From Patescibacteria group bacterium (GTDB lineage Bacteria > Patescibacteriota > Minisyncoccia > Phycocordibacterales > Phycocordibacteraceae), in NCBI GenBank assembly GCA_040390125.1, contig JAZJYZ010000001.1:243026-307025 (forward strand): a stretch of 64,000 nt of DNA, read 5' to 3'. The stretch's first letter is position 1. Each line of letters starts with the position of its first letter. Under the pieces are notes generated by a model. That model did no database searches. It saw only the letters and a program-made list of their open reading frames with translations, and was not told the origin of the DNA. Of the stretch, positions 39,933 to 56,972 are shown in pieces. The translations under genes and the position numbers were made by a program.

Positions 39933-40331
39933 ATGAAAAATAACAAATATACACTTATAGCAGTAGCTGTTGTGCTGATAGTTCTACTTGGAGGATTTGT
40001 TTCGTATCAGTCATACAAATCGGCAGGACCGGCAGTGTCGGGCGCACTTGATCCATTTGCGACGTGTCTAAAAGATTCAGGAGCGATTTTTTACGGGGCT
40101 TTTTGGTGTCCTCACTGCCAAGCGACAAAAAAAATGTTTGGCGCTTCAGCAAAATTGCTTCCCTATGTTGAGTGTTCAATGCCCGATGGAAGCAACCAAA
40201 CACAAGTTTGCATTGACAAAGGTATTAAGTCGTATCCGACATGGAAATTCTCCGATGGGTCAGAGCTTACCGGCGAGAGAACGCTCGCTGAGCTTGCCGA
40301 AAAAACAAGCTGTGAGCTTCCGGTTCAATAA
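39933..40331 (+). CDS. membrane-anchored thioredoxin-fold protein (DsbA-like, CPHC active site)
   Basis: N-terminal TM helix and FWCPHCQATKKMF. The adjacent downstream gene is DsbB-like. Confidence 0.6.
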   Translation: MKNNKYTLIAVAVVLIVLLGGFVSYQSYKSAGPAVSGALDPFATCLKDSGAIFYGAFWCPHCQATKKMFGASAKLLPYVECSMPDGSNQTQVCIDKGIKSYPTWKFSDGSELTGERTLAELAEKTSCELPVQ

Positions 40332-40334
40332 TAT

Positions 40335-40955
40335 ATGCTCACTCTTGAGACTCTCAACTACCTGATTGCCGTAAGCACTATTGGGATGCAAGTAGCATCC
40401 GTAGCACTTTTGGTAGTGTTCTTCTTTAGAAAAAGCCCATGGGCTCGAGGTATTGCTGAGCTCGTTACCAACTGGGGTTTGTGGGTTTCTTTGCTCCTCG
40501 TTGTAGCTGGTACTCTACTGAGCTTAGTGTATTCAGAATATTTCGGTATTGTGCCGTGCGGTCTTTGTTGGCTTCAGAGAGTCTTCCTCTATCCGCAGGT
40601 TGTCTTGTTTGCGTTGGCTACTTGGAAAAAAAGCGAACTGCTTCGCTTTTTTTCCGGTGGCGAAGCCAAGCGCCAATATTCGCAAAGCGAAAAGGCACTA
40701 GGAGGGACAAATGATTCCTTTTTTGCAGATTATTCAATTGTGCTTTCATTTTTAGGTGGGGCAGTTGCACTGTATCAACATTATTTACAGATGGGTGGAA
40801 CAAGTGCACTGCCTTGCCCAGCATCAGGCGTTACGGATTGTGCAAAGCGATTTCTCTTTGAATTCGATTACATCACATTTCCACTCGTTGCGTTCTCTTC
40901 GTTCGCACTTCTTTTCGTCATAATGCTTTTTGTACGACAGAAGCGAGCTACGTAA
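40335..40955 (+). CDS. DsbB-like disulfide bond formation protein
   Basis: Four TM segments. PCGLCWLQRVFLYPQ resembles the DsbB CxxC...QR...Y loop, and there is a second Cys pair (CPASGVTDC). Confidence 0.55.
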   Translation: MLTLETLNYLIAVSTIGMQVASVALLVVFFFRKSPWARGIAELVTNWGLWVSLLLVVAGTLLSLVYSEYFGIVPCGLCWLQRVFLYPQVVLFALATWKKSELLRFFSGGEAKRQYSQSEKALGGTNDSFFADYSIVLSFLGGAVALYQHYLQMGGTSALPCPASGVTDCAKRFLFEFDYITFPLVAFSSFALLFVIMLFVRQKRAT

Positions 40956-40966
40956 TTTAGAATGCC

Positions 40967-41407
40967 ATGCACATTAAAGAACTTGGGCATGTAGTGTTGT
41001 ATGTTTCCAACCTGGAGCGGTCGGCAAATTTTTATAGAGATACTTTGGGTTTTACTGAAATTGCCAGGGAACCTGGAGTTGCGGCATTCTCATCTGGTCG
41101 GACTCATCATGAGCTTCTATTGATCGAGATAGGGAAGGAACCCAAAGCAAAAGAAGTAATTGAAACCGGCTTGTACCACATTGGTTTCAAAATAGGGGAC
41201 ACCAGGGAAGAATTAAAGCAGGCATACAAGGAGTTGCAGGCGAAAGGGGTACAAATAATCGGCATGTCTGATCATGCAGTTACTCATTCGCTCTATATTC
41301 TTGATCCTGATGGAAATGAGCTCGAGCTCTATGCTGATGTGAGTGACGTGTGGAAGAAAGACCCTCGTGCCGTTATGAGTCCAACTCGCCCGCTGAGCCT
41401 TGACTGA
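40967..41407 (+). CDS. VOC-family (glyoxalase/bleomycin-resistance/dioxygenase) protein
   Basis: ELGHVVLYVSNLERSANFYRDTLGF, followed by a second beta-alpha-beta-beta-beta module. Confidence 0.7.
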   Translation: MHIKELGHVVLYVSNLERSANFYRDTLGFTEIAREPGVAAFSSGRTHHELLLIEIGKEPKAKEVIETGLYHIGFKIGDTREELKQAYKELQAKGVQIIGMSDHAVTHSLYILDPDGNELELYADVSDVWKKDPRAVMSPTRPLSLD

Positions 41408-41637
41408 TGTGACTTCTTAGGATATAGTATAGAAGTACTCATTTTCTCCATTCGCTTTTAGGGGTGTGCCCCTCACAGAGCCTTTGGAAATAAGGAATCT
41501 GTTTCCTGCAGAATCCAAGGGCGCTGTATTGATTTTTATTTCAATAGTAATGCGCATGTGTGAGATACACGCTTGCATATCGTAAGTGCATCTGGCGATC
41601 AATGCGCCGGTTATTATTGAAATAAATTAAAGCAGTT

Positions 41638-43113
41638 ATGTATAACTCAGATAGTAATAGTAAAGGTAAGTTTTCACGTACCCCTCGTCATTCGCGGGGA
41701 GGTTCTAGCTCTGCACCACGGAGTCCTCGAAGTGGTTCACGTGCTCCATATAGTGCGGATTCTGGTCCGAGCCGTTCTTCGTTTGCACCAAGTGCTCGCC
41801 CATACCAAGGAGGAGGTAGCCGTTCAGGTGGCGGAGGTAGTTCTCGTCCACCGTACCAAGGAGGACACTCTCGTCCATATCAGGGAGGTGGTCGCCCACC
41901 ATACAGAGGCGGTGGAGCTCCACGTTTTGGTGGCGGAGGCGGTAGTCGTTACGGCGGAGGCGGTGGTAGAGGAGGAGGTCGTTCGTTTGATAAATATATT
42001 GATGCTTCCCGTTTCGTAAACAAGGCAGTCATTACAGAGAGAGTAGAGCACTTTGTTCCTGAACATGCGTTTGCAGATTTTAAGGTAGATGAACGCTTGA
42101 AAACTGCCATTAGCAAGAAAGGATATGTTCTTCCAACACCGATTCAAGATAAGGCAATTCCTCATATTCTTCGAGGAGAAGACGTAGTGGGTATTGCAAA
42201 CACCGGCACCGGAAAAACGGCGGCATTTTTGATTCCACTCATCGACAAGATGCTTAAAAATCCCGAGGAAGAAATACTCATCATGGTTCCTACACGTGAA
42301 CTTGCACTCCAGATTGAGCAGGAGTTTCGTGGCTTTGCACCAGGACTTCGTTTGTATTCTGCCTGCTTCGTGGGAGGTGTGTATATCGGTAAAGATTTGC
42401 AAAAACTTCGCCAAAGAAACAATCTCGTCATTGGTACGCCAGGGAGACTCAAAGACTTGGTAGAGAGACGTGCACTCAATCTTTCAAAATTCAAGACGGT
42501 AGTTCTCGACGAAGCAGACCGCATGCTCGACATGGGCTTCATTGCTGATATGCGTTTTATGCTTTCAAAAATGGAACCTGTGCGTCACACACTCTTCTTC
42601 TCGGCGACACTCACAAAGGAAATTGAAAAACTCATCAAAGATTTCTTGCAGAATCCCGTTACTATTTCAGTGAAGACGCAAGAAACCGCTGAGTCTATTG
42701 ATCAAGACGTAGTCAAAGTAAGTGCCGATGAAACAAAGATCGATGTGCTCTTAGATTTGTTGAAGCAACCTGAATTCGATAAAGTGCTTGTGTTCGGAAA
42801 AACGAAGCATGGTGTTGAAAAATTGGCGAAAGCACTCGTTGCTATGGGTGTTAAAGCTGAATCTATTCACGGAAACAAGACTCACGGAAAGCGACAGAAG
42901 GCACTCGACCTTTTCAAGCGTGATCAAGTACAGGTGCTTGTTGCAACGGATGTTGCGGCACGAGGCCTCGACATCGTTGGTGTGTCACACGTGATCAACT
43001 TCGACATTCCTTCAACGTATGAAGATTACGTCCATCGCATTGGACGCACCGGCAGAGGTGGAAAGAAAGGGAAGGCTCTTACTTTCGTTGAACAGAAAGG
43101 CGGTCGTCGTTAA
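41638..43113 (+). CDS. DEAD-box ATP-dependent RNA helicase with ~130-aa N-terminal Gly/Arg/Ser-rich low-complexity region
   Basis: Q-motif/PTPIQ, Walker A AxTGTGKT, DEAD, SAT and HRIGRTGR motifs are present. The N-terminal RGG/PYQGG repeats are unusual in that they are N-terminal rather than C-terminal. Confidence 0.9.
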   Translation: MYNSDSNSKGKFSRTPRHSRGGSSSAPRSPRSGSRAPYSADSGPSRSSFAPSARPYQGGGSRSGGGGSSRPPYQGGHSRPYQGGGRPPYRGGGAPRFGGGGGSRYGGGGGRGGGRSFDKYIDASRFVNKAVITERVEHFVPEHAFADFKVDERLKTAISKKGYVLPTPIQDKAIPHILRGEDVVGIANTGTGKTAAFLIPLIDKMLKNPEEEILIMVPTRELALQIEQEFRGFAPGLRLYSACFVGGVYIGKDLQKLRQRNNLVIGTPGRLKDLVERRALNLSKFKTVVLDEADRMLDMGFIADMRFMLSKMEPVRHTLFFSATLTKEIEKLIKDFLQNPVTISVKTQETAESIDQDVVKVSADETKIDVLLDLLKQPEFDKVLVFGKTKHGVEKLAKALVAMGVKAESIHGNKTHGKRQKALDLFKRDQVQVLVATDVAARGLDIVGVSHVINFDIPSTYEDYVHRIGRTGRGGKKGKALTFVEQKGGRR

Positions 43114-43503
43114 TTTTTCTGCTCCACACTTTGACGTGCACACCTCTCGCACGTATGATGAGAGGTGTGACACCATTCTTAGTAGCCTGAAAAAATAATT
43201 TTCTTGATATGGATACAGATACACCAATGGTACCGACTCCTCCTATGGAGCCTGCACACGAAGTTCCTACTCCGGCAATGCCAGAAGCACCAGCTTCAGC
43301 ACCGGTCGAAGAGCATCCGGCAGTTTAGTAAGAGCATCCCTAAAAACTCCGTCCTGCCTGCAATGCATTTTTCCGGGCTACGACACACTCGTCTCATCCT
43401 CTACGTACTTCCAATACGTTTCGGATTCCGACTCGGTGTCTCACCTTCGGAAACATGCATCTCGGCTCGAACACCCCAGTTTTTAGGTATACTCTAGTTC
43501 TTT

Positions 43504-43535
43504 AAAAAGCGAGGCAGGGAAACCTGCCTCGCTTT
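43504..43535 (+). terminator. rho-independent terminator closing the unannotated 43114-43500 region
   Basis: aaaaagcgaggcagg-gaaa-cctgcctcgcttttt. Confidence 0.8.
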
Positions 43536-43590
43536 TTGTTATTGGTTAGTAAAGTCAATAATGGCCTCCAGAGAGTGGTAAAATGCTCAT

Positions 43591-44034
43591 ATGAAAAAAT
43601 ACCTTGTTCTTTTTGGGGTACTCGTACTTGTGGCTGTCGGAGCACTCTATTTTTTCTTTCTTTCTGAGGTGGATGCTCCGAGCGTCTCTACCGTACATTA
43701 CGTGAATGCAACAGCAGACAATATAGTAGTTGCGTCGCCAAAGCCTGGAGAAAGTCTAGGGTCTATTATTGATGTTTCCGGTCGTGCCAGAGGAATGTGG
43801 TATTTCGAAGCTAGTTTTCCAATTCAAGTCGTTGACGATACGGGGGCTGTGATAGCGCAAGATATTGCGACTGCAGACGGGGAATGGATGACGGAGGAGT
43901 TTGTACCCTTCACGGCAACAATTACGTTGACGTCTCCGTACACTGGCCCCGCAACACTCATTCTCAAAAAAGATAACCCTTCGGGTGAAGCGTCAAGGGA
44001 TGCCTCCATGGAGATTCCTATAGTGATTCAATAA
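43591..44034 (+). CDS. hypothetical secreted protein
   Basis: Signal peptide/TM (MKKYLVLFGVLVLVAVGALYFFF). Confidence 0.4.
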   Translation: MKKYLVLFGVLVLVAVGALYFFFLSEVDAPSVSTVHYVNATADNIVVASPKPGESLGSIIDVSGRARGMWYFEASFPIQVVDDTGAVIAQDIATADGEWMTEEFVPFTATITLTSPYTGPATLILKKDNPSGEASRDASMEIPIVIQ

Positions 44035-44041
44035 GCTGTAT

Positions 44042-44416
44042 ATGCAGGACATCGCACACACCAAACATCGAGCAGTGATTGTGGCGTTTATTATTTTGAT
44101 TATTACTATTGCGGCACTTGCCGTGTGGCCTGATGCACGTCGACAACCAAATCAAGTTAATAAGAGCGCTGATATTATTGCAACGGTAACGTATCAATGT
44201 GAAGAAGATAAGTGGGTTCGTGCGATGTATACAAAGGACAACACCGTAGAGTTAGAGCTCAGCGATCTTCGGGCAATCACACTGCCTTTGACCGTGTCCG
44301 CCTCTGGTGCGAAGTATGCCAATGCAAATGAAAATTTCGTGTTTTGGAACAACGCCAGTACCGCTTTCATACAAGAAAACAATGCTTTGACGTTTACGAA
44401 CTGCATCACTGAGTGA
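44042..44416 (+). CDS. MliC-like (membrane-bound lysozyme inhibitor of C-type lysozyme) domain protein
   Basis: YQCEED...SASGAKY...FWNNASTAF...C matches the MliC family conserved core (YxC...SASGA(R/K)Y...W(T/N)KG..A..C). Confidence 0.55.
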   Translation: MQDIAHTKHRAVIVAFIILIITIAALAVWPDARRQPNQVNKSADIIATVTYQCEEDKWVRAMYTKDNTVELELSDLRAITLPLTVSASGAKYANANENFVFWNNASTAFIQENNALTFTNCITE

Positions 44417-44455
44417 TTAACGGTTTTTAGTTGATTTCCTTATTTTTCTTTCATT

Positions 44456-44716
44456 TTGTATACTTTTTGTATGAGTATGTATACCCGTGATGGCTGTCCG
44501 GTTACTCGTGATATCCGTATGATTCACGGTGGAGCGGGGCAGGGAGGAGCACCCTATGATTCTGAAATCAGACCGCCTCTGTCCTTGAAGCAACAAGCCG
44601 TACAATACAGAAACAAAGCCGATGTGCTTGCTCATACGGGGCAGCATAAGCTTGCATTACTTTTTCGATCTATGGCTAATGCCATAGATCCGATTGCAAA
44701 GAAAAAGACCTCTTAA
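44456..44716 (+). CDS. hypothetical small protein (uncertain)
   Basis: 86-aa ORF in a 330-nt intergenic region, followed immediately by a bidirectional terminator. No homology was recognised. Confidence 0.25.
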   Translation: MYTFCMSMYTRDGCPVTRDIRMIHGGAGQGGAPYDSEIRPPLSLKQQAVQYRNKADVLAHTGQHKLALLFRSMANAIDPIAKKKTS

Positions 44717-44726
44717 GAGGTCTTTT
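44703..44726. terminator. bidirectional rho-independent terminator
   Basis: aaaagacctctt-aa-gaggtctttt. Confidence 0.7.
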
Positions 44727-44744
44727 GTGTTGAGGCCTTATAAC

Positions 44745-45224
44745 TCATTCCGTCACCACTAGTGTGCCCCACATACCCATGGAGCGGTGACTCCCTACGG
44801 AGCAGTAGTATTCGAATGAGCCCACTTTATCTGCGACAAACTCTACCACCGCACTCTCTCCACCTCCAATTTTGCTCGTTGCAACATTGAATTCGTCAAT
44901 TTTAAAATCATGCATACCGCCGGAGTTCACGAAGGTAATTTTCACTCGGTCACCTGCTCTAGCACTGATTGCTACAGGGGCAAAGGAAAAATTTGAACCA
45001 GTAATAGTGAATTCTTTAACACGTGCGGTTGGTGCCTCACTCATGACTTCGGCTTTAATTTCACCTGTTTCCATACCTCCAGGGGGAAGTGTGGGAGTTT
45101 CCTCGGTGACTACAGGTTCGGCAACGTCCTCAATCGAAGCTGGTGGGTTTTGCGAGAAGTAATACCAACCGCCGAAAGCTAGAACGATAACAACTATCAG
45201 AATGATGGTTGATTTTTGTTTCAT
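44745..45224 (-). CDS. cupredoxin (type-1 blue copper, plastocyanin/azurin-like) protein, membrane-anchored; start trimmed to MKQKSTIIL
   Basis: Copper ligands lie in ...H...YYCSVGSHRSMGM. The annotated longer ORF (to 45341) runs into the conserved structured element. The internal Met gives a TM anchor. Confidence 0.65.
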   Translation of the reverse strand: MKQKSTIILIVVIVLAFGGWYYFSQNPPASIEDVAEPVVTEETPTLPPGGMETGEIKAEVMSEAPTARVKEFTITGSNFSFAPVAISARAGDRVKITFVNSGGMHDFKIDEFNVATSKIGGGESAVVEFVADKVGSFEYYCSVGSHRSMGMWGTLVVTE

Positions 45225-45250
45225 AGTTACAGTAAAGCACATCGTACCTC

Positions 45251-45357
45251 TCGCACTACCTTTGGCGAAACATTCGGCTTCTCCTCTGGAAGCCTTATTC
45301 GTCCTCGCACCGATTTCCCACCCAAGGTGGGAACCCAGCAATCGGTACTGCGGATGT
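45251..45357. ncRNA. conserved ~107-nt structured element, copy A (candidate cis-regulatory RNA or small structured repeat); orientation unresolved
   Basis: It is about 85% identical to 56547-56653. The terminal 10-bp inverted repeats ttggcgaa.../...ttcgccaa form a closing helix. The internal hairpin ttcccacc-caag-gtgggaa versus ttcccgct-caaa-gcgggaa shows two compensatory pair changes. It lies directly upstream of the cupredoxin start. Confidence 0.55.
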
Positions 45358-45492
45358 TCGCCAAAGGTAGCACTCGTTTTTAAAGTTCGAAATTCTAGGG
45401 TTTTGCCGACACGGTGGTGCTATGTTATACTTTTCCTACTTGTATGATTTTAGTATCTACAGAATAATAATTACTACTATAAAAATATTGCT

Positions 45493-46107
45493 ATGATATA
45501 CGACACTATTCCCTCAGCAGAAGTTATTGAAAAAACCATCGCTGCAGTTGGTGCACGCAACGTGTCTGTGCACCTTGTGAATACCAAAGAAGAGGCGTTA
45601 GAGAAAGTGAAATCACTTATTCCTGAGGGGGCGGAAGTTATGACAGGGAGTTCAACGACGCTCCAGCAGATTGGTTTTGTGGACGTATTAAAGTCAGGAG
45701 AGCACCCTTGGAAGAACGTGAAAGAGACTATTGTTGCTGAAACAGATCCGGTGAAGCAAACGGAACTCCGAAAGTTAAGTGTCTCTGCTGATTATTTTCT
45801 CGGAAGTATCCACGCTATTACTGAAGCTGGGCAGACAGTCGTGGCCTCAGCTTCGGGTTTCCAGATTCCTTCGTATGCTTTTACCAGCGATAACGTGATA
45901 TGGGTCGCCGGTGCACAGAAAATAGTGCCCAATCTTGAATCTGCCTTTGCACGCATTCACGACTATGTATATCCACTAGAAGACGCTCGCATGAAGTCAG
46001 TGGGAATGGGCGGAAGTGTTATCGCAAAGATGTTTATATTCGAGCGTGAAATAATGCCGAATCGCCATGTACATCTTGTGCTCGTGAAAGAGGTCTTAGG
46101 TTTTTAG
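45493..46107 (+). CDS. LUD-domain (LutC/YkgG-like, DUF162) protein
   Basis: About 200 aa, with N-terminal TIAAVGARNVSVHLV...EEAL and a Gly-rich middle segment consistent with the LUD domain. Assignment is moderate. Confidence 0.45.
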   Translation: MIYDTIPSAEVIEKTIAAVGARNVSVHLVNTKEEALEKVKSLIPEGAEVMTGSSTTLQQIGFVDVLKSGEHPWKNVKETIVAETDPVKQTELRKLSVSADYFLGSIHAITEAGQTVVASASGFQIPSYAFTSDNVIWVAGAQKIVPNLESAFARIHDYVYPLEDARMKSVGMGGSVIAKMFIFEREIMPNRHVHLVLVKEVLGF

Positions 46108-46130
46108 TGATTTTTAGTTTTAGACAGGCT

Positions 46131-46193
46131 CTATTTTCCTCCTGTATAGTATAAAATCGCTACCGGAATTTTATACTATACAGCTGAAAATAG
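46131..46193. repeat. palindromic hairpin element, copy 1 (shared 17-nt arms ctgtatagtataaaat / attttatactatacag)
   Basis: ctattttc-ct-cctgtatagtataaaat-cgctaccgga-attttatactatacag-ct-gaaaatag. Confidence 0.8.
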
Positions 46194-46199
46194 GGATGT

Positions 46200-48050
46200 T
46201 TGTGTGCCTCCGTTCGCTCGGTGTGCGACAATGGCTCGATGTCGACCGAAACAAAATATCCTCGGGTGGGTACTCTGGATGTCTTTAAGGCATTATGGCG
46301 TGGTATTAAGCCCCAGAAGGGAATTTTCTTCCTCTTGATCGGTGCCTCAATCGTTTCGAGCATCGTAGCGTCCGTTCTGATACCGCTCTCCTATAAGGAG
46401 TTTTTTGACATTCTGAGTGGTGCTACTAACCCATCAGCTGCCGTATCGTCTCTTCTCACTGTTGTTGTTACGATCGCTCTGTTTAACGTTTTCAGGTGGC
46501 TTGCACGTCGCATTGTTGATTTCAGCATCTCAAACCTCGAAGCGAACAGCATGGCACGACTTCGTCAGCAAGCGTTCGAGTACCTGGTTCGTCATTCGCA
46601 TACCTTTTTCTCTAATACTTTTACTGGAAGTCTCGTGCAGAGGGTAAGCCGTCTTGCTCGTTCTGTTGAAAGGTTACTCGATACCTTGAGTTTCACGTTG
46701 ATCCCACTTCTCGTCACTGTGCTCGGTGCGATTATCGTCGTATGGCATCAGGATCATTTTCTCGCTTTCGTGATTGCTGGATGGATTGTTGCCTTTTTTG
46801 CTTGTAATTTTGCTTTCTCCCTCTGGCGGGTGAAATATAGCGTCCGTGTTGCTGAAGCCGATTCGAAGACCACTGGAACTCTGGCCGACATCATCTCGAA
46901 CCAGAGTGCAGTTTCCTTGTTCTCTGCTTTTTCTGCGGAAGAGGCACGTTTCAAAAGCGTTACGAGAGCTCAAGCAAAGATCACACGGTTCACGTGGGAC
47001 GTCGCTAATATATTTGATGCCCTGCAAGCAGCTCTGATTGGTGTCGCAGAATTTCTTATCTTTTGGTATGCAGTGCCCCTGTGGGCTGAAGGGGCAATAG
47101 GTATAGGAACGCTCGTCTTGGTGCAGGTCTATTTGTTCCAACTTGCCTCGCAACTCTGGGACTTTGGCAGAATAATCCGTACGCTCTACGAGCTCTTCGC
47201 CGATTCCAAGGAGATGGTGGAGATCATGACCTTGCCACACGAGATAAAGGATGCACCGGATGCGAGGGAGCTTAGTGTGCAAAATGGCGAAGTTGAGTTC
47301 AGGGGTGTTTCTTTCAATTTTCAGGCGAAGAATAAGATTCTAGATAACGTTTCTGTTCGCATCTCTGCCGGGCAGAAAGTTGCACTGGTGGGTCCTTCTG
47401 GAGCTGGAAAGACGACGTTCGTCCGCCTACTTCTCCGCTTCCATGACCTTGTGGAAGGGCGAATCCTAATAGATGGAGAGCCTATAGAAAAAGTGACGCT
47501 GGATAGCTTGCACGAGAATATTGCACTAGTGCCTCAGGACCCCGTTCTTTTTCATCGGACTCTGATGGAAAACATACGCTACGGACGTATCAGTGCTACC
47601 GATGAAGAGGTGAAAGAAGCAGCACGACTTTCTCACTCTGATGAATTTATAGAAGCGTTGCCGCTTGGCTATCAGACGTACGTGGGGGAGCGGGGAGTGA
47701 AGCTCTCGGGTGGTGAGCGTCAACGCATTGCCATCGCACGTGCGATTCTCAAGAATGCACCTATACTCGTCTTGGACGAAGCGACATCAAGCCTTGATTC
47801 ACATTCCGAAGCGTTGATACAGGGAGCACTCGAGACATTGATGCGTGGGAAAACGGTCATCGCCATCGCACACCGCCTCTCTACCATACGCACCATGGAT
47901 CGCATTATTGTTCTTGAAGGTGGTAGCATCCGTGAAGACGGTACGCATGAGGCACTGTTAAAGAACCCCACAAGTTTGTACCGAGAGCTTTGGAACTTGC
48001 AAGCTGGTGGCTTTATTTTGGAAGAAGAAGTTGAAGAGACACTTGTATGA
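46200..48050 (+). CDS. ABC transporter, fused permease/ATP-binding (type I exporter, MsbA-like)
   Basis: Six TM segments, then the NBD with Walker A GPSGAGKTT, signature LSGGERQRIAIARAIL, and Walker B ILVLDEATS. Confidence 0.85.
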   Translation: MCASVRSVCDNGSMSTETKYPRVGTLDVFKALWRGIKPQKGIFFLLIGASIVSSIVASVLIPLSYKEFFDILSGATNPSAAVSSLLTVVVTIALFNVFRWLARRIVDFSISNLEANSMARLRQQAFEYLVRHSHTFFSNTFTGSLVQRVSRLARSVERLLDTLSFTLIPLLVTVLGAIIVVWHQDHFLAFVIAGWIVAFFACNFAFSLWRVKYSVRVAEADSKTTGTLADIISNQSAVSLFSAFSAEEARFKSVTRAQAKITRFTWDVANIFDALQAALIGVAEFLIFWYAVPLWAEGAIGIGTLVLVQVYLFQLASQLWDFGRIIRTLYELFADSKEMVEIMTLPHEIKDAPDARELSVQNGEVEFRGVSFNFQAKNKILDNVSVRISAGQKVALVGPSGAGKTTFVRLLLRFHDLVEGRILIDGEPIEKVTLDSLHENIALVPQDPVLFHRTLMENIRYGRISATDEEVKEAARLSHSDEFIEALPLGYQTYVGERGVKLSGGERQRIAIARAILKNAPILVLDEATSSLDSHSEALIQGALETLMRGKTVIAIAHRLSTIRTMDRIIVLEGGSIREDGTHEALLKNPTSLYRELWNLQAGGFILEEEVEETLV

Positions 48051-48589
48051 TTATAGGTATCACGGGCACGATAGGCGCAGGGAAGGGCACGATTGTCTCT
48101 TATTTAGAGAAGAAAGGATTTCGGCATGTGTCTGTTTCAGACTTTCTTGCTGATGTCGCCAAAGAGCGAGGTATTGAAGCGACACGTATTGCACGGAGAA
48201 CTATTGGCAACGAGTATCGTACGAAAAGCAAAACCGCACTTATTGAAGCCGTTCTTGCCGACGTAAACCCTCTGAAGGAACATATTGTTGTTGAGTCTCT
48301 ACACACCGCCTCCGAAGTGGAGTATGTTCGTAGCCTCGGGGGCACAATAATTTCGATTGATGCACCACTCTCTGTCCGCTATGAGCGGATTGTCAAGCGA
48401 GGAAGTATGACCGACCAGGTAAGTCTGGAGGAGTTTGTGCTAGAAGAAAAACGCCAGCTCGCCTCTGACGATCCAAATGAGAATAATCTGATTGCTTCGA
48501 TTTCTCTCGCTGACATCCATCTTGAAAACAATGGCTCGCCTCAGGAGCTTTATCAAGCAATTGATGATATTCTTGAGCGACTTATATGA
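48047..48589 (+). CDS. P-loop nucleoside/nucleotide kinase family protein (dephospho-CoA-kinase/dNK-like)
   Basis: N-terminal MIIGITGTIGAGKGT Walker A, small at 180 aa. The exact substrate cannot be assigned. Confidence 0.45.
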   Translation: MIIGITGTIGAGKGTIVSYLEKKGFRHVSVSDFLADVAKERGIEATRIARRTIGNEYRTKSKTALIEAVLADVNPLKEHIVVESLHTASEVEYVRSLGGTIISIDAPLSVRYERIVKRGSMTDQVSLEEFVLEEKRQLASDDPNENNLIASISLADIHLENNGSPQELYQAIDDILERLI

Positions 48590-49311
48590 ACCCATTCGAT
48601 TCCCTCAGGGCAAGTCCTCTTCAATTTCGGTACCCAGGGCGATTCATCATCATTGGCAAAGATGCTGATTCGTACGTGGTGTTATATGGCGCAACGGGAC
48701 GTAGTCCGTCGAGCTTGGCGAGAAAGTTAGTTCGCAAAGATCATTCAGTATTTATGACAGCGGCGGATGAAACTGTTTCCAAAGAGGGTAATCCGGAACT
48801 CTTGGAATATCCCGCCCTTAAGGTCATTAAAAACGGTCTCGTAGTCGCAAATGGCAGGCAAATAGAAAATATTTCAAATATTGAGAAACGTGATGCACGC
48901 AAACAGCTCTCGTACGCAATGAGTGAAGAGGCATATGAGCCTGATGAATATCGAACACCTCGTATCACAGGTCTCTTGGCAGAAACTCAAGAAGGAATGG
49001 ACGGAGCACTCCATATAACACGTTCAGCGATTGACGGCATCGACCACTCTTCTTGGACTGTTCCATTTGAAAGCGGAAAAGGTCTTTTTATTTCTACCTA
49101 TGTTGGGGAAGACGTAAAACCGACTCCTTCTTTTGGAGGAGACCCTCTTCCTGTTGCACTTAATTTCGGATCTGCAAAAAATGCTGTACATGCCCTTTTC
49201 GATTCGTTCGCTCCTAGGGAAAGGCAGACTGATTACCGTGTGGGGTTTGTAGGGGTTTACTTGTCTTTTGGTAAACCGCTTGAAATTGCTATAGTAAATC
49301 GTATCTCATGA
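48586..49311 (+). CDS. hypothetical protein (weak resemblance to archaeal-type IMP cyclohydrolase PurO)
   Basis: The N-terminal GRFIIIGKDADSYVVLYGATGRSPSS pattern is reminiscent of the PurO N-terminus. This is recognition-level only. Confidence 0.3.
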   Translation: MNPFDSLRASPLQFRYPGRFIIIGKDADSYVVLYGATGRSPSSLARKLVRKDHSVFMTAADETVSKEGNPELLEYPALKVIKNGLVVANGRQIENISNIEKRDARKQLSYAMSEEAYEPDEYRTPRITGLLAETQEGMDGALHITRSAIDGIDHSSWTVPFESGKGLFISTYVGEDVKPTPSFGGDPLPVALNFGSAKNAVHALFDSFAPRERQTDYRVGFVGVYLSFGKPLEIAIVNRIS

Positions 49312-49784
49312 GTGACGACTTCGATGATATTCAGATGCCTGCAATGAATCCCGGCGGTAAATCGGCGGCCCTTATAGAGGATGGTTTATCTGCGAAAGAA
49401 TTTGAAAAAATAGTAACTGATGCTTTTCTTTTAGTTCCAGAAAAATTTAGCTCCAAGGTGAGTGCAAGCGCTATCGTAATTGAAGAGGTGCCGAGCGATG
49501 CTCTGCTTCGGAAAGAAAATGTTCCAGAGGGCCATACTCTTTTTGGTCTGTATCAAACCACTGACGTTGGCGAGGGAGTGGTGATATTTCGTAATCCTAT
49601 TTTGCATGCTGCCGCCCATGAGGCTGGAGTTGAAGTGGAGTGGGGGGCTCCCACTGAGCCAATGAAACGCCGTATTCGTTCCATCGTTCGTGACATCATC
49701 TGGCATGAAATTGCACGCCATTTTGATATGGATGAATTTGAAATAGGTGCTCGAGAGGAGACGGGGATTAGTGAATTTAAATAG
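49308..49784 (+). CDS. putative zincin-like metallopeptidase (Zincin_1/DUF1025-like)
   Basis: C-terminal HEIARHFDMDE and the earlier HEAGVE resemble HExxH-type minimal zincins. Confidence 0.35.
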   Translation: MSDDFDDIQMPAMNPGGKSAALIEDGLSAKEFEKIVTDAFLLVPEKFSSKVSASAIVIEEVPSDALLRKENVPEGHTLFGLYQTTDVGEGVVIFRNPILHAAAHEAGVEVEWGAPTEPMKRRIRSIVRDIIWHEIARHFDMDEFEIGAREETGISEFK

Positions 49785-49906
49785 CTTTCAGGTGTTGGCT
49801 TTCAGATTTTAGTTTTAGGCGATGCTTCATCGTGTCCGAGGGCCAGCTTTACTGTATCCGTAGGTTTCATAGGAAAAATTTTTTATTTTTCTCTGAAATA
49901 CGAAAA

Positions 49907-49957
49907 ACCCCCTGTATAGTATAAAATCACGGTCGTGATTTTATACTATACAGGGGT
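49907..49957. repeat. palindromic hairpin element, copy 2 (same arms as 46131..46193)
   Basis: cccc-ctgtatagtataaaatcacg-gtc-gtgattttatactatacag-gggg. Confidence 0.8.
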
Positions 49958-50030
49958 GATAGGTGGGGGTGAGAGGAGTGGGTGACTTTACATATTTAAA
50001 ATTCAAAATCTTCCTAACTTCTCTAAACCC

Positions 50031-50594
50031 TTAAGGGGTTATGCTTTGTGTTTTTAGGAGTTCTGCGAATTTTTCCTGAACTTTTTGGAGTTTTGGTTCG
50101 ATAATTACTTGGCAGTATCCTTGGTTTTTATTTCTGGCGTAGTAGTCGAGATGCTCTTGTTCTGCCGGATAGAATTTTGTAAGAGGCGCTATATCAGTTG
50201 CTATAGGCTTTCCTTCTTTTGATGAATCATTGAGTTCCTGTATAAACGTTTCAGCTTCTTTCTTTTGCGTTTCGTTCGTGTAGAGAATTATTGAGCGATA
50301 TTCTGTACCTACATCATTACCTTGGCGATTTACTTGTGTGGCATCATGTGTGCCGAAAAAGACCGTGAGCAAATCTTTGTAGGTAATCGCTTCTGCGTCA
50401 AATTCTATTTTTATTACTTCCGCATGCCCCGTGTCTCCATTCATTACAGAATAGTAGGTGGGGTTTTCGGTTATTCCTCCTGCATAGCCAGGTTCAACTG
50501 AAATTACGCCCCGAAGCATTTTAAACACTGCTTCGGTGCACCAAAAACATCCCCCGCCGAATACCGCACTACTTTTAGTGTTTTCCACATCCAT
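50031..50594 (-). CDS. msrA: peptide methionine sulfoxide reductase MsrA
   Basis: GGGCFWCTEAVF active site. MsrA length and motifs (GYCQV...) match. Confidence 0.9.
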   Translation of the reverse strand: MDVENTKSSAVFGGGCFWCTEAVFKMLRGVISVEPGYAGGITENPTYYSVMNGDTGHAEVIKIEFDAEAITYKDLLTVFFGTHDATQVNRQGNDVGTEYRSIILYTNETQKKEAETFIQELNDSSKEGKPIATDIAPLTKFYPAEQEHLDYYARNKNQGYCQVIIEPKLQKVQEKFAELLKTQSITP

Positions 50595-50609
50595 ACATAA
50601 TCAAATAGA

Positions 50610-51245
50610 TCAGCAAACTGGATTTCTTTTGATGTGTTTGTAAATGGGAACGAACATGAACGCACCGATCAATTCGAACACTGAGACTGCGAGTATCACA
50701 CTCTGAAATCCAAAAGTGATAGCGAGGTATCCACCTAACGCTGCGGTCGCCGCAGAGGCGAGGTCGAGCATGGTGAAATAGAGTCCCCACATGGTGGCTT
50801 CTTTGCTATCGGGTATGTATTTTGTGAAAAGTGCCATGAAAGAAGGGAACTGAAATGCGAATGCAAGTCCCAAGAGAAACTGTGCCACATAGAGCTCAAA
50901 TGGAGTTGAGATGAACAGGTACGAGAGAGGTATGAAGCTTGCAAAGATGAGACTGCCGAAGATAAACCAAAAATCATCTTTATCACCGCATATCTTGTCA
51001 ATCAAGGCAGCAGCGGGTATTTGAAACAGGCTCTTGGTGATGAGATAGATTGCTATCGCAATGCCTGCAACTTCTGCACTTCCTCCTTGAATAAAGTCCA
51101 CTACGAAGAGTGCGAAGATGGGGCCGAGGAGTCCAGCTGCGGAGAAGAATACTACGTCTCCGAAAATGAGAAATTTTATTACAGGATTCGCTTTGAGGAG
51201 ATCCCCCCAGAAAAAAAAGCGGCGAGTGTTCGTCTCAGTATTCAT
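50610..51245 (-). CDS. six-TM membrane protein (MFS-half-like)
   Basis: 211 aa with six predicted TM helices. It sits between msrA and msrB. Confidence 0.4.
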   Translation of the reverse strand: MNTETNTRRFFFWGDLLKANPVIKFLIFGDVVFFSAAGLLGPIFALFVVDFIQGGSAEVAGIAIAIYLITKSLFQIPAAALIDKICGDKDDFWFIFGSLIFASFIPLSYLFISTPFELYVAQFLLGLAFAFQFPSFMALFTKYIPDSKEATMWGLYFTMLDLASAATAALGGYLAITFGFQSVILAVSVFELIGAFMFVPIYKHIKRNPVC

Positions 51246-51420
51246 TTTTCTTTAAGAACCTGTTTCAAAAATAACGGCGTTACGAATCGCCCAAACTCCG
51301 TTGTGAGACTCAAAGCGTACTTCGATGGCGTGTCAGAGACACGGTGAGAAGTGTGCTGCAGGGTCGTAACAGGAGTTTGGGCGATGCAGTAGCCGAACGA
51401 GCTGGTTATATATGATTTGT

Positions 51421-51822
51421 TCATGGAGTGTTTATTTTTGAAACGGGTTCGAGATTTAGGCAGACGGAGTTAATACAATATCGTTTCCCCGTGTTGGTAG
51501 GGCCATCATCAAATACGTGCCCCAAGTGAGAGCCACATTTTGCACACACGACTTCCGTGCGTGTCATGCCGTGCGAGGCGTCTGTTTTCATTTCAACTGA
51601 TCCGGGGATTGCATCGTCGAATGATGGCCAGCCGGTGCCAGAGTCAAACTTCTTTTCGGACGTAAAGAGAGGATTGCTACAGACTTTGCAATTAAACGTG
51701 CCGGAGGCGTCGGTGTGTACGTATTCGCCACTAAAAGGGGCTTCAGTTGCACCGGTGCGGAGTACTGCGTATTCCTCGGGCGTGAGGCGAGCTTTCAGCT
51801 CTTCTTCATCGGGTGTATTCAT
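51421..51822 (-). CDS. msrB: peptide methionine (R)-S-oxide reductase MsrB
   Basis: Zn-binding CxxC pairs. GTGWPSF and [10 protein letters not shown] are SelR motifs. Confidence 0.9.
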
Positions 51823-51856
51823 ACTTCTATTCTAACAGGAGTATAATAAAAGGCAT

Positions 51857-52999
51857 ATGAAAAAACTCTCATTTTTAGCTTTTTTTGCAGTGGTAGCTTT
51901 AGTGATTCCGTTTGGCACTGTGCAGGCGGCACAAATGCAAGCAGAAAAGACTCTTACTATTTCTGAGGCATTGTCTGAAAATGCCTACCTAGTTGGACAA
52001 GAAGTCTACATATCTGCCACAGCTCGAAAAGACCTACTTGGTGCTGGCGGAAAGGTGACAGTGAATGCTCCAGTTGCCGGCGATCTTATGCTTGGGGCGG
52101 GTAGTATTAATATTCTCGACGAAGTAGCGGGGGATGTTCGTGTTGCTGGCGGAGATGTGACTATTTCGAAGTCTATTGGCGGAGACCTGCTTGTATTTGG
52201 TGGTACGGTTGTGATTCTTCCCGGGGCAACTATTGAAGGAGATGTTCTACTAGTTGGAGGAAGTGTAGACGTGCAGGGCACTCTCAATGGGAGTTTTAGA
52301 GTGTATGGAGGGGAGGCGACACTCAATGGCATCGTCGTCGGACCAGCCGTAATAAAAGTTAGCGAGACTATTGCTTTCGGCGAGAAGGCAGACTTTCGCT
52401 CTTCGCTCTCCTATTCTGCTCCAGCGGAGGCAACCATTACTGAGGGTGCAAAACTTGGCGACGAAGTGGTGTTTACAATGCAGGACACCAAGCCCCAGCG
52501 TAGTGTTGCAGGAGGAATTTTTGCTTTCATTGGTGTACTGATGATAATGAAATTCATCGGAATGCTTACGGCTGCACTTGTGGTCACGTACGCATTTAAG
52601 AATGCATCGCTCGCACTTTCTACGGGGGCGATTCAAAAATTCTGGCAGATGACCGGTATTGGACTTATTGCAACCGTTGTAACACCTATTGCTATTTTGC
52701 TTTTGTTCGTGAGCGTTATTGGAATGTATGTTGGTTTTCTTGTGGCTGTGCTCTATATATTTGCACTACTCACTGCAGGTATCTTCATGTGTATCATTGC
52801 GGGAGGTTTTCTTTCAAAATTAATTAAGAAAGAAATTCAAGTGAATTGGGTATGGGTGCTGGCTGGGACGATTCTTGTCTTCCTCCTCCCATTCATTCCG
52901 GTCCTTGGTTGGGTTGCTCTAGTGCTCCTCTTCTTTAATTCGATAGGTGCTGTGGTGATGAGCTTGAGGCAGGACGCTAAGGCAAAAATGGAAGTGTAA
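51857..52999 (+). CDS. membrane protein with N-terminal bactofilin-like (DUF583) beta-helix repeats and C-terminal polytopic domain
   Basis: Signal/TM, then repeated GD(V/L)xVxGG(D/S)VxIxG segments typical of the polymer-forming cytoskeletal domain, then at least four TM helices. Confidence 0.4.
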   Translation: MKKLSFLAFFAVVALVIPFGTVQAAQMQAEKTLTISEALSENAYLVGQEVYISATARKDLLGAGGKVTVNAPVAGDLMLGAGSINILDEVAGDVRVAGGDVTISKSIGGDLLVFGGTVVILPGATIEGDVLLVGGSVDVQGTLNGSFRVYGGEATLNGIVVGPAVIKVSETIAFGEKADFRSSLSYSAPAEATITEGAKLGDEVVFTMQDTKPQRSVAGGIFAFIGVLMIMKFIGMLTAALVVTYAFKNASLALSTGAIQKFWQMTGIGLIATVVTPIAILLLFVSVIGMYVGFLVAVLYIFALLTAGIFMCIIAGGFLSKLIKKEIQVNWVWVLAGTILVFLLPFIPVLGWVALVLLFFNSIGAVVMSLRQDAKAKMEV

Positions 53000-53010
53000 C
53001 TATTAAACAT

Positions 53011-53478
53011 ATGCCAAACGTAGGAGAACAAGCGCCTGACTTCACCCTTCTTGATCAAAATGGGAAGGAACACACTCTTTCGATGTATAAGGGACGTTTT
53101 GTACTTCTTTATTTTTATCCGAAGGACGATACCAGTGGATGCACTAAAGAAGCATGCATGATACGAGATGCGTTTCCTCGCTTCGAGGGTGTGCACGCTC
53201 ACGTATTAGGGGTGTCTACGGACTCTGTAGTAAGTCACAAAAAGTTTGCCGAAAAATACCAACTGCCTTTTTCACTGTTAGCCGATGAAAACAAAGAGGT
53301 TGTAGGGAAGTACGGCGTATGGGGCGAGAAGAAAATGATGGGACGCACCTACATGGGCACCAAGCGTACCTCTTTCTTAATAGACCCGAATGGCATCATA
53401 AAAAAAGTATACGAGGCGGTGAAGCCTGAAGTCCACGCAGAAGAAGTTCTTGCCGATCTCCAATCCTTAAATGCGTAA
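53011..53478 (+). CDS. bcp: thiol peroxidase Bcp (peroxiredoxin, AhpC/TSA family)
   Basis: FYPKDDTSGCTKEAC catalytic motif. It is 155 aa. Confidence 0.85.
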   Translation: MPNVGEQAPDFTLLDQNGKEHTLSMYKGRFVLLYFYPKDDTSGCTKEACMIRDAFPRFEGVHAHVLGVSTDSVVSHKKFAEKYQLPFSLLADENKEVVGKYGVWGEKKMMGRTYMGTKRTSFLIDPNGIIKKVYEAVKPEVHAEEVLADLQSLNA

Positions 53479-54525: not shown

Positions 54526-54540
54526 GTATACAATATATGT

Positions 54541-55362
54541 ATGACGCAACACACGTTTTCTTCTGTGGGGGGATTCCGAACGATAGTGCGAACCTTTTTC
54601 AAGAGTAACGGAAGACACAATTTGCCATGGAGGAATACCCGTAACCCGTATCGTATTTTGGTATCAGAAATAATGCTCCAGCAAACGCAGGCTGATAGAG
54701 TAATTCCGAAATACAAAGCATTTCTGAAAAAGTTCCCGACAGTGCACACACTTGCACAGGCACCCCTTGGTGAAGTCCTCCGGGAATGGCAAGGCTTAGG
54801 CTACAACCGACGAGCCAAAATGCTTCATGGAGCGGCAAAAGTCATTGTTGAAAAGCACAAAGGCACGGTTCCGCTTCTTTACAATGAGCTTATTCAATTG
54901 CCGGGGGTAGGGGATTATACGGCAAAAGCAGTTCGTGTCTTTGCATGGAACAAACCGGAAGTAATGATTGAAACCAACATCCGTAGCGTTTTTATTCATC
55001 ATTTTTTTCCAAATAAGGTTGGAGTGGGTGATGAAAATTTACACCCATATATGGGTGAGGTTTTAGATACAAATAATCCTCGGGAGTGGTACTCGGCATT
55101 AATGGATTACGGGAGTTATTTGAAAAAGACACTACCCAATCCATCACGAAAAAGTGTACATCATGTAGCACAAAAACCCTTTAAAGGCTCTGATAGGGAG
55201 ATACGGGGAGCTCTCCTTCGTCTGCTTTCAAAAAAATCCTCTAGCGTTGAGGATTTATATGAATTACCCTTTCAAAGGTTACGGATTGATACGCAAATAA
55301 AAGCTCTTGTGAAGGAAGGTTTCATAAGGAGTCGAGGGTCACGATATATGCTCCAGAGTTAA
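54541..55362 (+). CDS. MutY/Nth-family HhH-GPD glycosylase (MutY-like N-terminal domain only)
   Basis: ILVSEIMLQQTQADRVIPKYKAFLKKFP...WQGLGYNRRAKML...LPGVGDYTAKAV closely follows the MutY catalytic-domain pattern. There is no FeS cluster or NUDIX-like C-terminus. Confidence 0.65.
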   Translation: MTQHTFSSVGGFRTIVRTFFKSNGRHNLPWRNTRNPYRILVSEIMLQQTQADRVIPKYKAFLKKFPTVHTLAQAPLGEVLREWQGLGYNRRAKMLHGAAKVIVEKHKGTVPLLYNELIQLPGVGDYTAKAVRVFAWNKPEVMIETNIRSVFIHHFFPNKVGVGDENLHPYMGEVLDTNNPREWYSALMDYGSYLKKTLPNPSRKSVHHVAQKPFKGSDREIRGALLRLLSKKSSSVEDLYELPFQRLRIDTQIKALVKEGFIRSRGSRYMLQS

Positions 55363-56516
55363 CGGGTGTCTTTGATCCGAAGTGAAATAGGAATACCTAA
55401 GAAAAGTATCGCACCGAAGACCGCAAACACGTATTCAAAAGGGGCATAAAAAAGAACGATACTACCGATCACTGGTCCGACTATCACCCCACACTGCCGG
55501 AGCACTCGAAATACGCTGATAAGCTCGCTGTCTTTGGCACCCACTTTTTTGAAAAAATATGTTTCGGTTGCGATTTCAAGGAGTGCTGCGCCGATCTGGG
55601 TTCCAATCACTAGGAGTGCAAGGACAAGGAGACCAGTCCCTTCGGCGAAGGCGAGCATAATGAATGCGATTCCGGAAATGACAAAGCCCGCAATGATGAA
55701 TTCTTTCTCGCCGAATTTCTTGTCAGCGAGGAAGCCGACAGGCACCTGAAGCAGGATAAATGGCAGTATTGAGAAGGCGAGTATTGTGCCGATCATGCTC
55801 CACGGCAGACCCGCATGGTTATGGAGATACAGTGGGATGTAGATACCGCTCCATATGAACAGAAGTTGGAGCAAGAAGTTTGCACCCATGACTGCAGTGA
55901 GGGACCGGTTTTTCAGAATTGAATCAATCGCTTCCTTCAGATGCATGTTGGTGTGCTCGACGTGGGTGATGCCAGAGAAGAATCTGAATGCTATGTATGC
56001 ACATGCCGCAAACGCCCCCGCTGCTATGAGGAACATCCTCCAATACTCACTATCAGTAAGGGTTGCAGCGATGATGAGCGATGATATGGCGACTGCCATA
56101 TTGCTTGCGGTCAGAAATATCGCTCGTGCCGAACCAGTTCCTTCTTCTTTTTGTCCGACGATTTTCTCTAATACGACGTCAAGTCCGAGGGCTACAATCC
56201 ACCCTGAAACCCAAGCGATTGCAAAAAGTGGAAGAACTAGCACATCTGAAAGATCTAATGAAAGTCCGATAAGTGCGAGTGCTGCGGCACATGCGGCCAC
56301 TATGAGTACCCGGTGCGTTCGCCACTTGCGAAATAGGTGTGGAGTGTGAAGCATCATGAAGCCCGCAAGGATTGATGCCCCGGAGAATATAAGACCCACG
56401 GCAGATTCGGGTATGTATTGTGCCAGGAATGTAGAGTAGACGAAGTAGGGGAGGTAGACCCCTACGGCTCTGAGGAAGTTCCCTACATGTATTGCGTTTG
56501 CGGAGAAGTATTTCAT
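55359..56516 (-). CDS. MFS transporter; start trimmed to MKYFSANAIHV
   Basis: Twelve TM helices. The annotated start at 56561 extends into the conserved structured element, so the internal Met at 56516 is preferred. Confidence 0.7.
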   Translation of the reverse strand: MKYFSANAIHVGNFLRAVGVYLPYFVYSTFLAQYIPESAVGLIFSGASILAGFMMLHTPHLFRKWRTHRVLIVAACAAALALIGLSLDLSDVLVLPLFAIAWVSGWIVALGLDVVLEKIVGQKEEGTGSARAIFLTASNMAVAISSLIIAATLTDSEYWRMFLIAAGAFAACAYIAFRFFSGITHVEHTNMHLKEAIDSILKNRSLTAVMGANFLLQLLFIWSGIYIPLYLHNHAGLPWSMIGTILAFSILPFILLQVPVGFLADKKFGEKEFIIAGFVISGIAFIMLAFAEGTGLLVLALLVIGTQIGAALLEIATETYFFKKVGAKDSELISVFRVLRQCGVIVGPVIGSIVLFYAPFEYVFAVFGAILFLGIPISLRIKDTR

Positions 56517-56546
56517 TTGCTCTAGTATAGCGTGTCGCTCGGATTG

Positions 56547-56653
56547 CTTTTGGCGAAGCATTCGACTTCTGCCGCGGAAGCCTTATTCGTCCTCGCACCA
56601 ATTTCCCGCTCAAAGCGGGAACCGAGCAATCGATGTTGCGGATGTTCGCCAAA
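56547..56653. ncRNA. conserved ~107-nt structured element, copy B; orientation unresolved
   Basis: See copy A. It lies directly upstream of the MFS start. It is followed on the plus strand by an intrinsic-terminator-like hairpin at 56673-56705 (tgtgcaacct-cagg-aggttgcaca + atttttg). Confidence 0.55.
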
Positions 56654-56972
56654 AGCAACCCTCGCTCTCAAGTATGTGCAACCTCAGGAGGTTGCACAAT
56701 TTTTGAGACGGGCACTAGAGAGGCTCGACGTCTTTCAGCGTTCTCTCCTTCGGCATCCACGATCCGCCTTTTGCACAATAACTGTATAGGTAGGTGAGGT
56801 GACCATCTGCGTGTCGAAGCGTATGTGTTGCAAAAACGGTGTGATGAAATTCACAGTAGCGAGGTAGTCGCTCTCGCCAAGGTTCTTTTGATTCGATCAT
56901 GGTATTAAAACACTTACGCCGGAGTGAGTTTCTCCAGCCTGAGTTGTTTCCCTAATCCTAGTATCCGGCAGA

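Follow-up and report, generated by a model that had tools for sequence, protein, structure and literature searches.

Correia elements (NEMIS) of Neisseria and the ERIC sequences of enterobacteria are imperfect palindromes of 100–150 nucleotides (nt) with long inverted ends and no transposase of their own, and they are known in tens to hundreds of copies with a TA duplication and conserved terminal sequences. Here we describe an element of comparable architecture that is present in two copies (A and B) in a stretch of 64,000 nt (hereafter the window) from a Patescibacteria group bacterium (GTDB family Phycocordibacteraceae; assembly GCA_040390125.1, contig JAZJYZ010000001.1, positions 243,026–307,025 of the forward strand), copy A lying upstream of a cupredoxin gene and copy B upstream of a gene for a transporter of the major facilitator superfamily (MFS). 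What it shares with the Correia and ERIC sequences is an intergenic position next to promoters (or within transcription units), presence or absence among related strains and a long hairpin in RNA. Unlike them, it was seen at only two loci, has a CGAG flank of fixed orientation, varies at its termini with compensation, and conserves a three-way junction core. The element is unannotated and lies outside the described families, but small palindromic insertion elements of this kind, intergenic and stably folded, have precedents in other bacteria.

Small interspersed repeats are also known from pneumococci as RUP, BOX and SPRITE, of which RUP is ~107 nt long and is mobilised by an IS630-type transposase at a TA target. 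Similar size, stable predicted RNA folds and intergenic positions near genes link these repeats to the element described here, which differs from RUP in having no known partner transposase, in belonging to another phylum with another sequence, and in its apparently low copy number. The likeness to Correia, ERIC and RUP is one of architecture only, as no sequence similarity is known or was found, BLAST having covered the plasmid and phage collections.

Integron attC sites and elements of the IS200/IS605 type (PATE) are mobile DNA recognised as a folded single strand, and derivatives of IS200/IS605 carry two similar subterminal hairpins and no long terminal inverted repeat. Both resemble the present element in keeping structure while sequence varies, in strand asymmetry, in oriented insertion by a fixed short motif and in a conserved bulged stem base, and the IS200/IS605 family would also accommodate insertion 3′ of a fixed tetranucleotide. 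In contrast to both, no integrase or Y1 transposase lies near the element, and its folding strand is off the lagging-strand template as judged from GC skew. Unlike attC, it has no RYYYAAC/GTTRRRY core sites, its ends reading CGAG-UGCUACC ... GGUAGUG-CGAG without AAC/GTT, and an integron attC site was ruled out since the R″/R′ cores are missing at the palindrome ends. Unlike a PATE, its two internal hairpins (P2 and P3) are dissimilar, it has a long terminal repeat, and the window holds no Y1_Tnp match. The three-way-junction riboswitch aptamers (purine, TPP and others) have conserved junction nucleotides, covarying helices and a sense position upstream of a transporter gene in common with the element, which departs from them in having no Rfam match, a closing stem (P1) of 20 base pairs (bp) and no expression platform. 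It is, further, not conserved with orthologous genes, has direct repeats on either side and precedes the likely promoter.

Repeat unit and fold of the element

Copies A and B (window positions 45253–45373 and 56541–56661) are 121 nt apiece and lie in register at an offset of 11288. They agree at 98/121 positions (81%) over the whole unit and at 85.7% across the central 105 nt (BLAST), and they form the longest direct repeat of the window; the 24-mer GGAAGCCTTATTCGTCCTCGCACC, identical in the two, has 2 exact occurrences where shuffles expect 0.00. A third full copy is present in a relative (L028:2012–2132; cmsearch, 128.9 bits). All three have the architecture CGAG–119 nt–CGAG, and in all three the terminal inverted repeats comprise 16–20 complementary end bases, with outermost bases that differ from copy to copy (UGCUAC, GGUUGC and CACUCC).

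The minus-strand fold is a three-way junction composed of the 20-bp closing stem P1, a bulged hairpin P2 and a short hairpin P3 (Table 1). Single-sequence folding gives this junction on both strands, with z-scores of −7.1 and −4.3 and fold energies that are alike on plus and minus, and RNAalifold returned the same fold from the copies independently. No helix competing with the 20-bp P1 appears in minimum-free-energy or centroid folds. Across the three copies, 120 of 120 pair cells form standard pairs on the minus strand and double compensatory changes occur in 12 of the 40 pairs, counts that rest on three sequences only; in the control, in which partners were slid, 33–50% of cells were paired and 0–1 compensations were seen. 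The outer half of P1 varies freely among copies and is compensated every time, while the bases of the junction (YCGCA, the P2 bulge GCUNGGY, (G/A)CGAGGACGAAU and GA) are invariant. On the best-supported reading, the single-stranded fold of the element is under selection. A peptide-coding reading was ruled out, as the positions at which the copies differ follow no codon periodicity and chance accounts for the several open frames.

All six non-Watson–Crick pairs in the three copies are G·U on the minus strand, representing ~5 independent events (p about 0.06). On the plus strand these six cells become A·C mismatches, which lowers pairing to 95% as against 100% on the minus strand. This confinement of G·U pairs is suggestive of the minus, gene-sense strand as the one that folds. 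GC skew marks the plus strand as leading, such that the folding strand is not on the lagging-strand template, and single-stranded-DNA transposition from that template is weakly disfavoured since the folding strand is not the exposed one.

A preliminary description of the window had recorded a two-copy repeat of ~107 nt and ~85% identity. The repeat and its identity hold over the 105 nt aligned by BLAST, while its boundaries had to be redrawn, the two intervals having been 8 nt out of register with most of the 3′ arm omitted. The terminal inverted repeats it noted are likewise real, and comprise 20 pairs with one bulged pyrimidine instead of 8–10 bp. Two compensatory substitutions that it reported in an internal hairpin are recovered here at pairs 46–54 and 48–52, as is its second hairpin, in which copy B has a G·U pair on the minus strand that is an A·C mismatch on the plus strand. 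Its proposal that selection acts on structure and not on a peptide is strongly supported by the 120/120 cells and 12 doubly compensated pairs of the three copies. Orientation, which it had left open, is partly resolved by the restriction of G·U pairs to the minus strand and by the assignment of its plus-strand ‘terminator’ to the RNase J gene (see below).

Loci of relatives and searches for further copies

Syntenic loci of relatives were fetched via homologues of the cupredoxin and MFS proteins. At the cupredoxin locus, L015/L016, L017 and L153 keep the divergent arrangement of the LUD-domain and cupredoxin genes with a spacer of ~150 nt, compared to 268 nt in the window, and the first 80 nt of this spacer are nearly identical between these relatives and the window. 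The element is absent from the spacer in each of them. The empty site reads ...CGAG-TGAT(A/G)CGATATACTTTA..., with one CGAG, whereas the window site reads CGAG-(119 nt)-CGAG-AGGTACGATGTGCTTTA..., with two, and once 123 nt are taken out of copy A, the window aligns without gaps to the L015, L017 and L153 spacers.

The MFS locus shows a range of states. L030/L031 and L154, whose MFS identity to the window is 72% and 69%, are without the element. L027 (83% identical) carries a remnant from which positions ~8–66 are deleted, with half of P1, J1/2 and P2 lost and the MFS gene intact. L028/L029 (84% identical) have one full copy 25 nt before the ATG, together with a 5′ half-copy and a further decayed piece ~100–250 nt upstream, the full copy and fragments all falling within 300 nt. 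P1 of the full L028 copy differs from that of copy B at half of the outer positions, yet is perfectly paired. Each copy or fragment is preceded by CGAG in constant orientation relative to the element, with a purine-rich flank, ACTT-RARAR, further out. This combination of presence and absence, decay and pile-up is typical of an insertion element with a preferred target, not of a leader co-evolving with its gene.

The interval between the RNase J and MFS genes in L028 (L028:1021–2010; Logan SRR30809808) also has ~800 extra nt, which hold a second copy of the last ~35 RNase J codons from a different allele, a strong terminator and an open reading frame (ORF) of 78 aa without a Pfam match. This extra DNA suggests recombination at a hotspot where copies of the element accumulate. 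A hairpin in the window had been described earlier as an intrinsic terminator following copy B. The hairpin (56675–56698) is real, but its link to the element is not, as it is a conserved RNase J 3′ hairpin: it follows RNase J whether or not a genome carries the element, which rules it out as the element's own terminator, and its U-run in L030 and L027 runs in the gene-sense direction.

Known RNA families do not account for the element. At gathering scores, Rfam 15 matched only a tRNA-Ser in the whole window, and permissive scans of both copies on both strands up to E = 10 gave no family match, the best score being that of whalefall-1 (15.9 bits against a gathering score of 37, covering a single hairpin). 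The failure of the preliminary description to recognise a riboswitch class is matched by the Rfam check on either strand. ARAGORN made no tRNA-like call at the element, and hammerhead and other ribozyme cores were rejected on inspection of the junction strands and on the Rfam results.

For further copies, we searched the window and most of the relatives' syntenic sequence with two covariance models (built from two and three copies) and filters off, the three-copy run with filters off leaving aside L152–L154. Matches beyond A, B and the copies or remnants at the MFS locus were plain hairpins that score alike on both strands. BLAST with short words across ~197 kb (window and relatives) found no further fragments. 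A scan of the genome collection with the 17-mer of J2/3, TGCGAGGACGAATAAGG, returned 8 matches, all by chance, with a pattern so strict that the true L028 copy differs at 2 of its 17 bases, so that this is no evidence of absence. Among metagenome contigs an exact 22-mer had 0 matches, and a gapped pattern of the junction only gave at least 120 GC-rich chance matches, none of them real among the matches listed (by sequence check and covariance model), a result that is uninformative on distribution. Pattern scans of the viral collection and BLAST against phages and plasmids found nothing similar. A protein-database search with concatenated ORFs of the element, aimed at spurious ORF calls, gave no matches, and in the literature on miniature inverted-repeat transposable elements (MITEs), structured RNAs or leaderless translation in Patescibacteria we found nothing relevant.

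Promoter context and origin of the element

Shine–Dalgarno (SD)-like cores lie 4–12 nt before the ATG in 1 of 55 window genes, compared to 8% of random positions, and −10-like hexamers of the form TAnRnT end 4–12 nt before the ATG in 14 of 55, compared to 4% of random positions. On these counts, the organism appears to lack SD sites and to be largely leaderless, with −10 boxes 6–9 nt ahead of start codons. Many gene starts in the window also have (G/A)T immediately before the ATG.

The gap between element and ATG is 28 nt for copy A (ATG at 45224) and 24 nt for copy B (ATG at 56516), so that the copies are near the genes, as first described, without touching the start codons as was also claimed. 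The element occupies roughly −25 to −150, both window copies lie ~10–17 nt upstream of the −10 box of the downstream gene, and in every case a −10-like box stands between element and gene. The element would therefore enter the transcript of the gene only through read-through from upstream, and the cupredoxin and MFS genes are probably leaderless. Simple promoter and terminator scans found neither a promoter on the minus strand 5′ of the element nor a terminator 3′ of it. The longer ORFs 44745–45341 and 55359–56561, which reach into the element, are artefacts, as had been suspected, since the starts annotated by NCBI (proteins of 159 and 385 aa) coincide with the ATGs at 45224 and 56516. A further ATG, in frame and six codons 5′ of the annotated cupredoxin start (window 45242–45224, minus strand) would give a 165-aa variant, MCFTVT-MKQK..., recorded by one gene caller (P0158); the 159-aa start is more likely because the upstream ATG overlaps a TACGAT −10-like hexamer.

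The reading we favour, to which we give about an even chance, is that both copies represent an insertion element, low in copy number, non-autonomous and dependent on structure, that integrates in one orientation at CGAG and is loosely like a MITE, a Correia element or ERIC; its family, on our best reading, is or was active in one narrow Patescibacteria lineage of the Parcubacteria type. A miniature structured repeat was one of the options raised in the preliminary description, and it is the one borne out best, given the empty orthologous sites, the CGAG flanks and the decayed and fragmentary copies. Mechanistically, the unit would be mobilised in trans by an enzyme not encoded nearby and would integrate at CGAG in a single orientation. 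This enzyme may recognise the folded single strand, whether RNA or single-stranded DNA, and not the terminal sequence, given that variation is free in the outer arms and absent from the junction. Any effect on the cupredoxin and MFS genes would be incidental at most, through displacement of the −35 region, and in read-through transcripts the element would place a highly stable fold before the promoter. On this reading the element is not a ligand-sensing leader.

Several observations weigh against such an insertion element. Only two loci were seen in the ~197 kb of window and relatives, a low copy number, and a third independent genomic context is missing, the relatives' copies all being at the MFS locus. 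No transposase, recombinase or reverse transcriptase was found among the ~55 window ORFs or in the relatives' gene tables. The flanks are identical in all copies (CGAG after an ACTT–purine run), so CGAG is possibly a specific target or a part of the element and not a duplication, and divergence on the upstream side of the empty-site alignment is too great for exact boundaries to be fixed. The strand argument leans on ~5 independent G·U events (p about 0.06), and the invariant junction bases together with the constant 24–28 nt spacing to the ATG are also compatible with an RNA that functions for the host. As for membership among MITEs, terminal inverted repeats and 4-nt flanking repeats with an empty site in relatives are present, but conserved termini shared with a transposase-encoding autonomous element are not, as the termini differ and no transposase was found.

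The same features could arise at the level of DNA, from a palindrome or an ordinary DDE-type MITE whose complementarity is kept by template-switch ‘quasipalindrome’ correction or by co-evolution of repeat and transposase, the fold having no function in RNA or single-stranded DNA. Long terminal inverted repeats, 4-nt direct repeats at the ends, empty sites in relatives and decayed copies would all be expected of it, and the equal fold energies on both strands, with antisense pairing still at 95%, agree with it. We nonetheless consider it unlikely, since the outermost nucleotides of the repeat, the normal target of a DDE transposase, differ among copies while the internal junction is invariant, since compensation extends into two short hairpins with loops of 3 and 7 nt, and since every mismatch is a G·U on one strand. 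DDE insertion is, moreover, not orientation-specific, whereas the orientation of CGAG is fixed in every copy and fragment, and no transposase was found among the window ORFs or in the relatives' gene tables.

Host function could take two forms. An independent small RNA gene that was duplicated, acting in trans or as a protein-binding scaffold with paired ends and driven by a weak promoter within the conserved flank upstream, would explain the strongly conserved three-way junction with its invariant unpaired bases, the pairing of 5′ and 3′ ends as in many stable small RNAs, the conserved flank ACTT-RARAR-CGAG and the strand bias towards minus. A −10-like hexamer indeed stands 6 nt before CGAG in B (CATACT) and L027 (CATATT), at the spacing of −10 box to ATG elsewhere in the genome, but the hexamer is poor in A (CGAACT) and L028 (TTCACT). 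With no terminator after the element in the terminator scan, no Rfam family, absence or decay in close relatives, and fragments and tandem remnants that are unexpected for a host RNA gene, we regard a small RNA gene as improbable. The alternative host function, a cis-regulatory 5′ leader, riboswitch-like or responsive to a protein or metal, that co-regulates the cupredoxin and MFS genes, appears about as improbable. The orientation of the downstream genes, the distance of 24–28 nt from the ATG, an aptamer-like junction with covariation and the location of both genes in a redox/oxidative-stress cluster speak for such a leader. However, the 20-bp P1 leaves nothing to switch, and no expression platform was found: the element has no helix competing with P1, no minus-strand terminator or antiterminator after it and no ribosome-binding site to sequester in a genome that appears to use no SD. 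The −10 boxes sit between element and ATG, and CGAG direct repeats, fragments and the missing Rfam match are equally hard to reconcile with a leader. Nor is there a conserved link to orthologous genes, as the element is absent at the cupredoxin locus from L015/L016, L017 and L153 and, at the MFS locus, from L030/L031 and L154; in L027 it is degenerate there, P2 and half of P1 having been lost and the gene kept. The riboswitch-like leader among the options of the preliminary description was for these reasons not borne out, the element being dispensable in relatives.

An undescribed class of mobile element guided by structure, in bacteria of the candidate phyla radiation (CPR), is also conceivable, though we think it doubtful: a 119-nt three-way-junction unit read as a folded single strand of RNA or DNA, integrating in one orientation at CGAG near promoters through an enzyme unrelated to DDE transposases, or else a mobile, self-contained RNA module recruited by host genes as a regulatory or stabilising structure. 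The fixed CGAG flank, single orientation, freely covarying termini and invariant junction suggest a mobilisation that reads shape and not sequence, a mechanism that would merit a search should further copies exist. The tiny genomes of Patescibacteria are regarded as having little mobile DNA or regulatory RNA, and a structure-conserved insertion element among them would be a useful marker of recent genome dynamics. For those who search for RNA motifs, the element also carries a caution, as strong covariation, gene-sense orientation and a downstream transporter mimic a riboswitch, yet comparison points to a selfish or neutral insertion. Should neither copies across the genome nor a novel mobilising enzyme turn up, the element is of moderate to low interest.

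Features, neighbouring genes and other repeats

Table 1. Coordinates in the window of the element, its parts and the adjacent features
Feature	Position	Strand	Evidence or remark
Copy A, body, 119 nt, between two CGAGs, upstream of cupredoxin gene	45254..45372	−	cmsearch 147/142 bits
Copy A, 5′ flanking CGAG (gene-sense)	45373..45376	−	sequence reading and regex; single CGAG here in relatives
Copy A, 3′ flanking CGAG (gene-sense), a duplicated target site or else the terminus of the element itself	45250..45253	−	sequence reading and regex
Copy A, P1 5′ strand, pairing with 45253–45273 (20 bp, one bulged U)	45354..45373	−	folding, covariation, RNAalifold
Copy A, P1 3′ strand	45253..45273	−	folding, covariation, RNAalifold
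Copy A, P2: 7-bp stem, 7-nt bulge GCUGGGU, 7-bp stem, UUG loop	45309..45346	−	folding, covariation, RNAalifold
Copy A, J2/3 GCGAGGACGAAUAA, with core CGAGGACGAA invariant throughout copies and remnants	45295..45308	−	alignment of copies and remnants
Copy A, P3 hairpin, 6 bp, 7-nt loop	45276..45294	−	folding, covariation, RNAalifold
Copy B, body, 119 nt, upstream of MFS transporter gene	56542..56660	−	cmsearch 143/139 bits
Copy B, 5′ flanking CGAG	56661..56664	−	sequence reading and regex
Copy B, 3′ flanking CGAG	56538..56541	−	sequence reading and regex
Cupredoxin gene, 159 aa, downstream of copy A	44745..45224	−	Pfam Cupredoxin_1/Copper-bind; identical to NCBI MES2134929.1
MFS transporter gene, 385 aa, downstream of copy B	55359..56516	−	Pfam MFS_1; identical to NCBI MES2134944.1
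−10-like hexamers TACGAT (45241–45246) and TTTACT (45231–45236), between copy A and cupredoxin ATG	45231..45246	−	TATACT at aligned position in relatives
−10-like box TATACT, ending 7 nt before MFS ATG, between element and gene	56524..56529	−	sequence reading; TATAAT in L028 and TATACT in L030 at the same place
Hairpin downstream of RNase J gene, outside the element	56675..56698	.	conserved in L027, L028 and L030

Both genes that bear the element lie within a cluster concerned with redox and oxidative damage (~40300–56600), which includes DsbB, the cupredoxin, MsrA, MsrB, an AhpC/TSA peroxiredoxin, two HhH-GPD glycosylases and a second MFS gene, and which is syntenic in every relative examined. 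The RNase J gene beyond copy B (56973–58991, minus strand) encodes a metallo-beta-lactamase domain that is preceded by a low-complexity N-terminal extension of ~110 aa in which Pro, Arg and Ser abound.

A second family of palindromic repeats consists of perfect hairpins of 16–23 bp (CTGTATAGTATAAAAT...ATTTTATACTATACAG) with z-scores of −6 to −10, found in the window at 46138–46183, after the LUD-domain gene, and at 49908–49953, after the Zincin_1 gene. In relatives it occurs at L015:9121–9176, L017:9123–9176, L152:3400–3439 and L154:17732–17769, the palindrome after the LUD-domain gene recurring at the same spot. The arms contain TATACT-like boxes, and these palindromes may be combined terminator and promoter modules.

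An inverted pair of 78-nt repeats, 92% identical (540–617 on the plus strand and 8740–8817 on the minus strand), has z-scores of −0.7 and −1.3, i.e. a fold that is not significantly stable. Between these repeats lies an 8-kb segment with a tRNA-Ser, a cyclophilin and genes for cation efflux and a glutamine-synthetase-like protein. The tRNA-Ser (5360–5448) has its final 19 nt repeated 185 nt downstream (5430–5460 and 5615–5645), which looks like an att-type scar left at the tRNA gene by integration or excision. Short intergenic tandem repeats, including CTAAAC/CCCTAAA-like heptamers in both orientations, AAAGCC repeated four times and AGAACCT repeated three times, were seen in the window at 455–485, 17211–17238, 20161–20191, 20797–20822, 61674–61701 and 63764–63791, at 18877–18917 and 29937–29977, and at ~10940–10980, several of them directly 5′ of a start codon.

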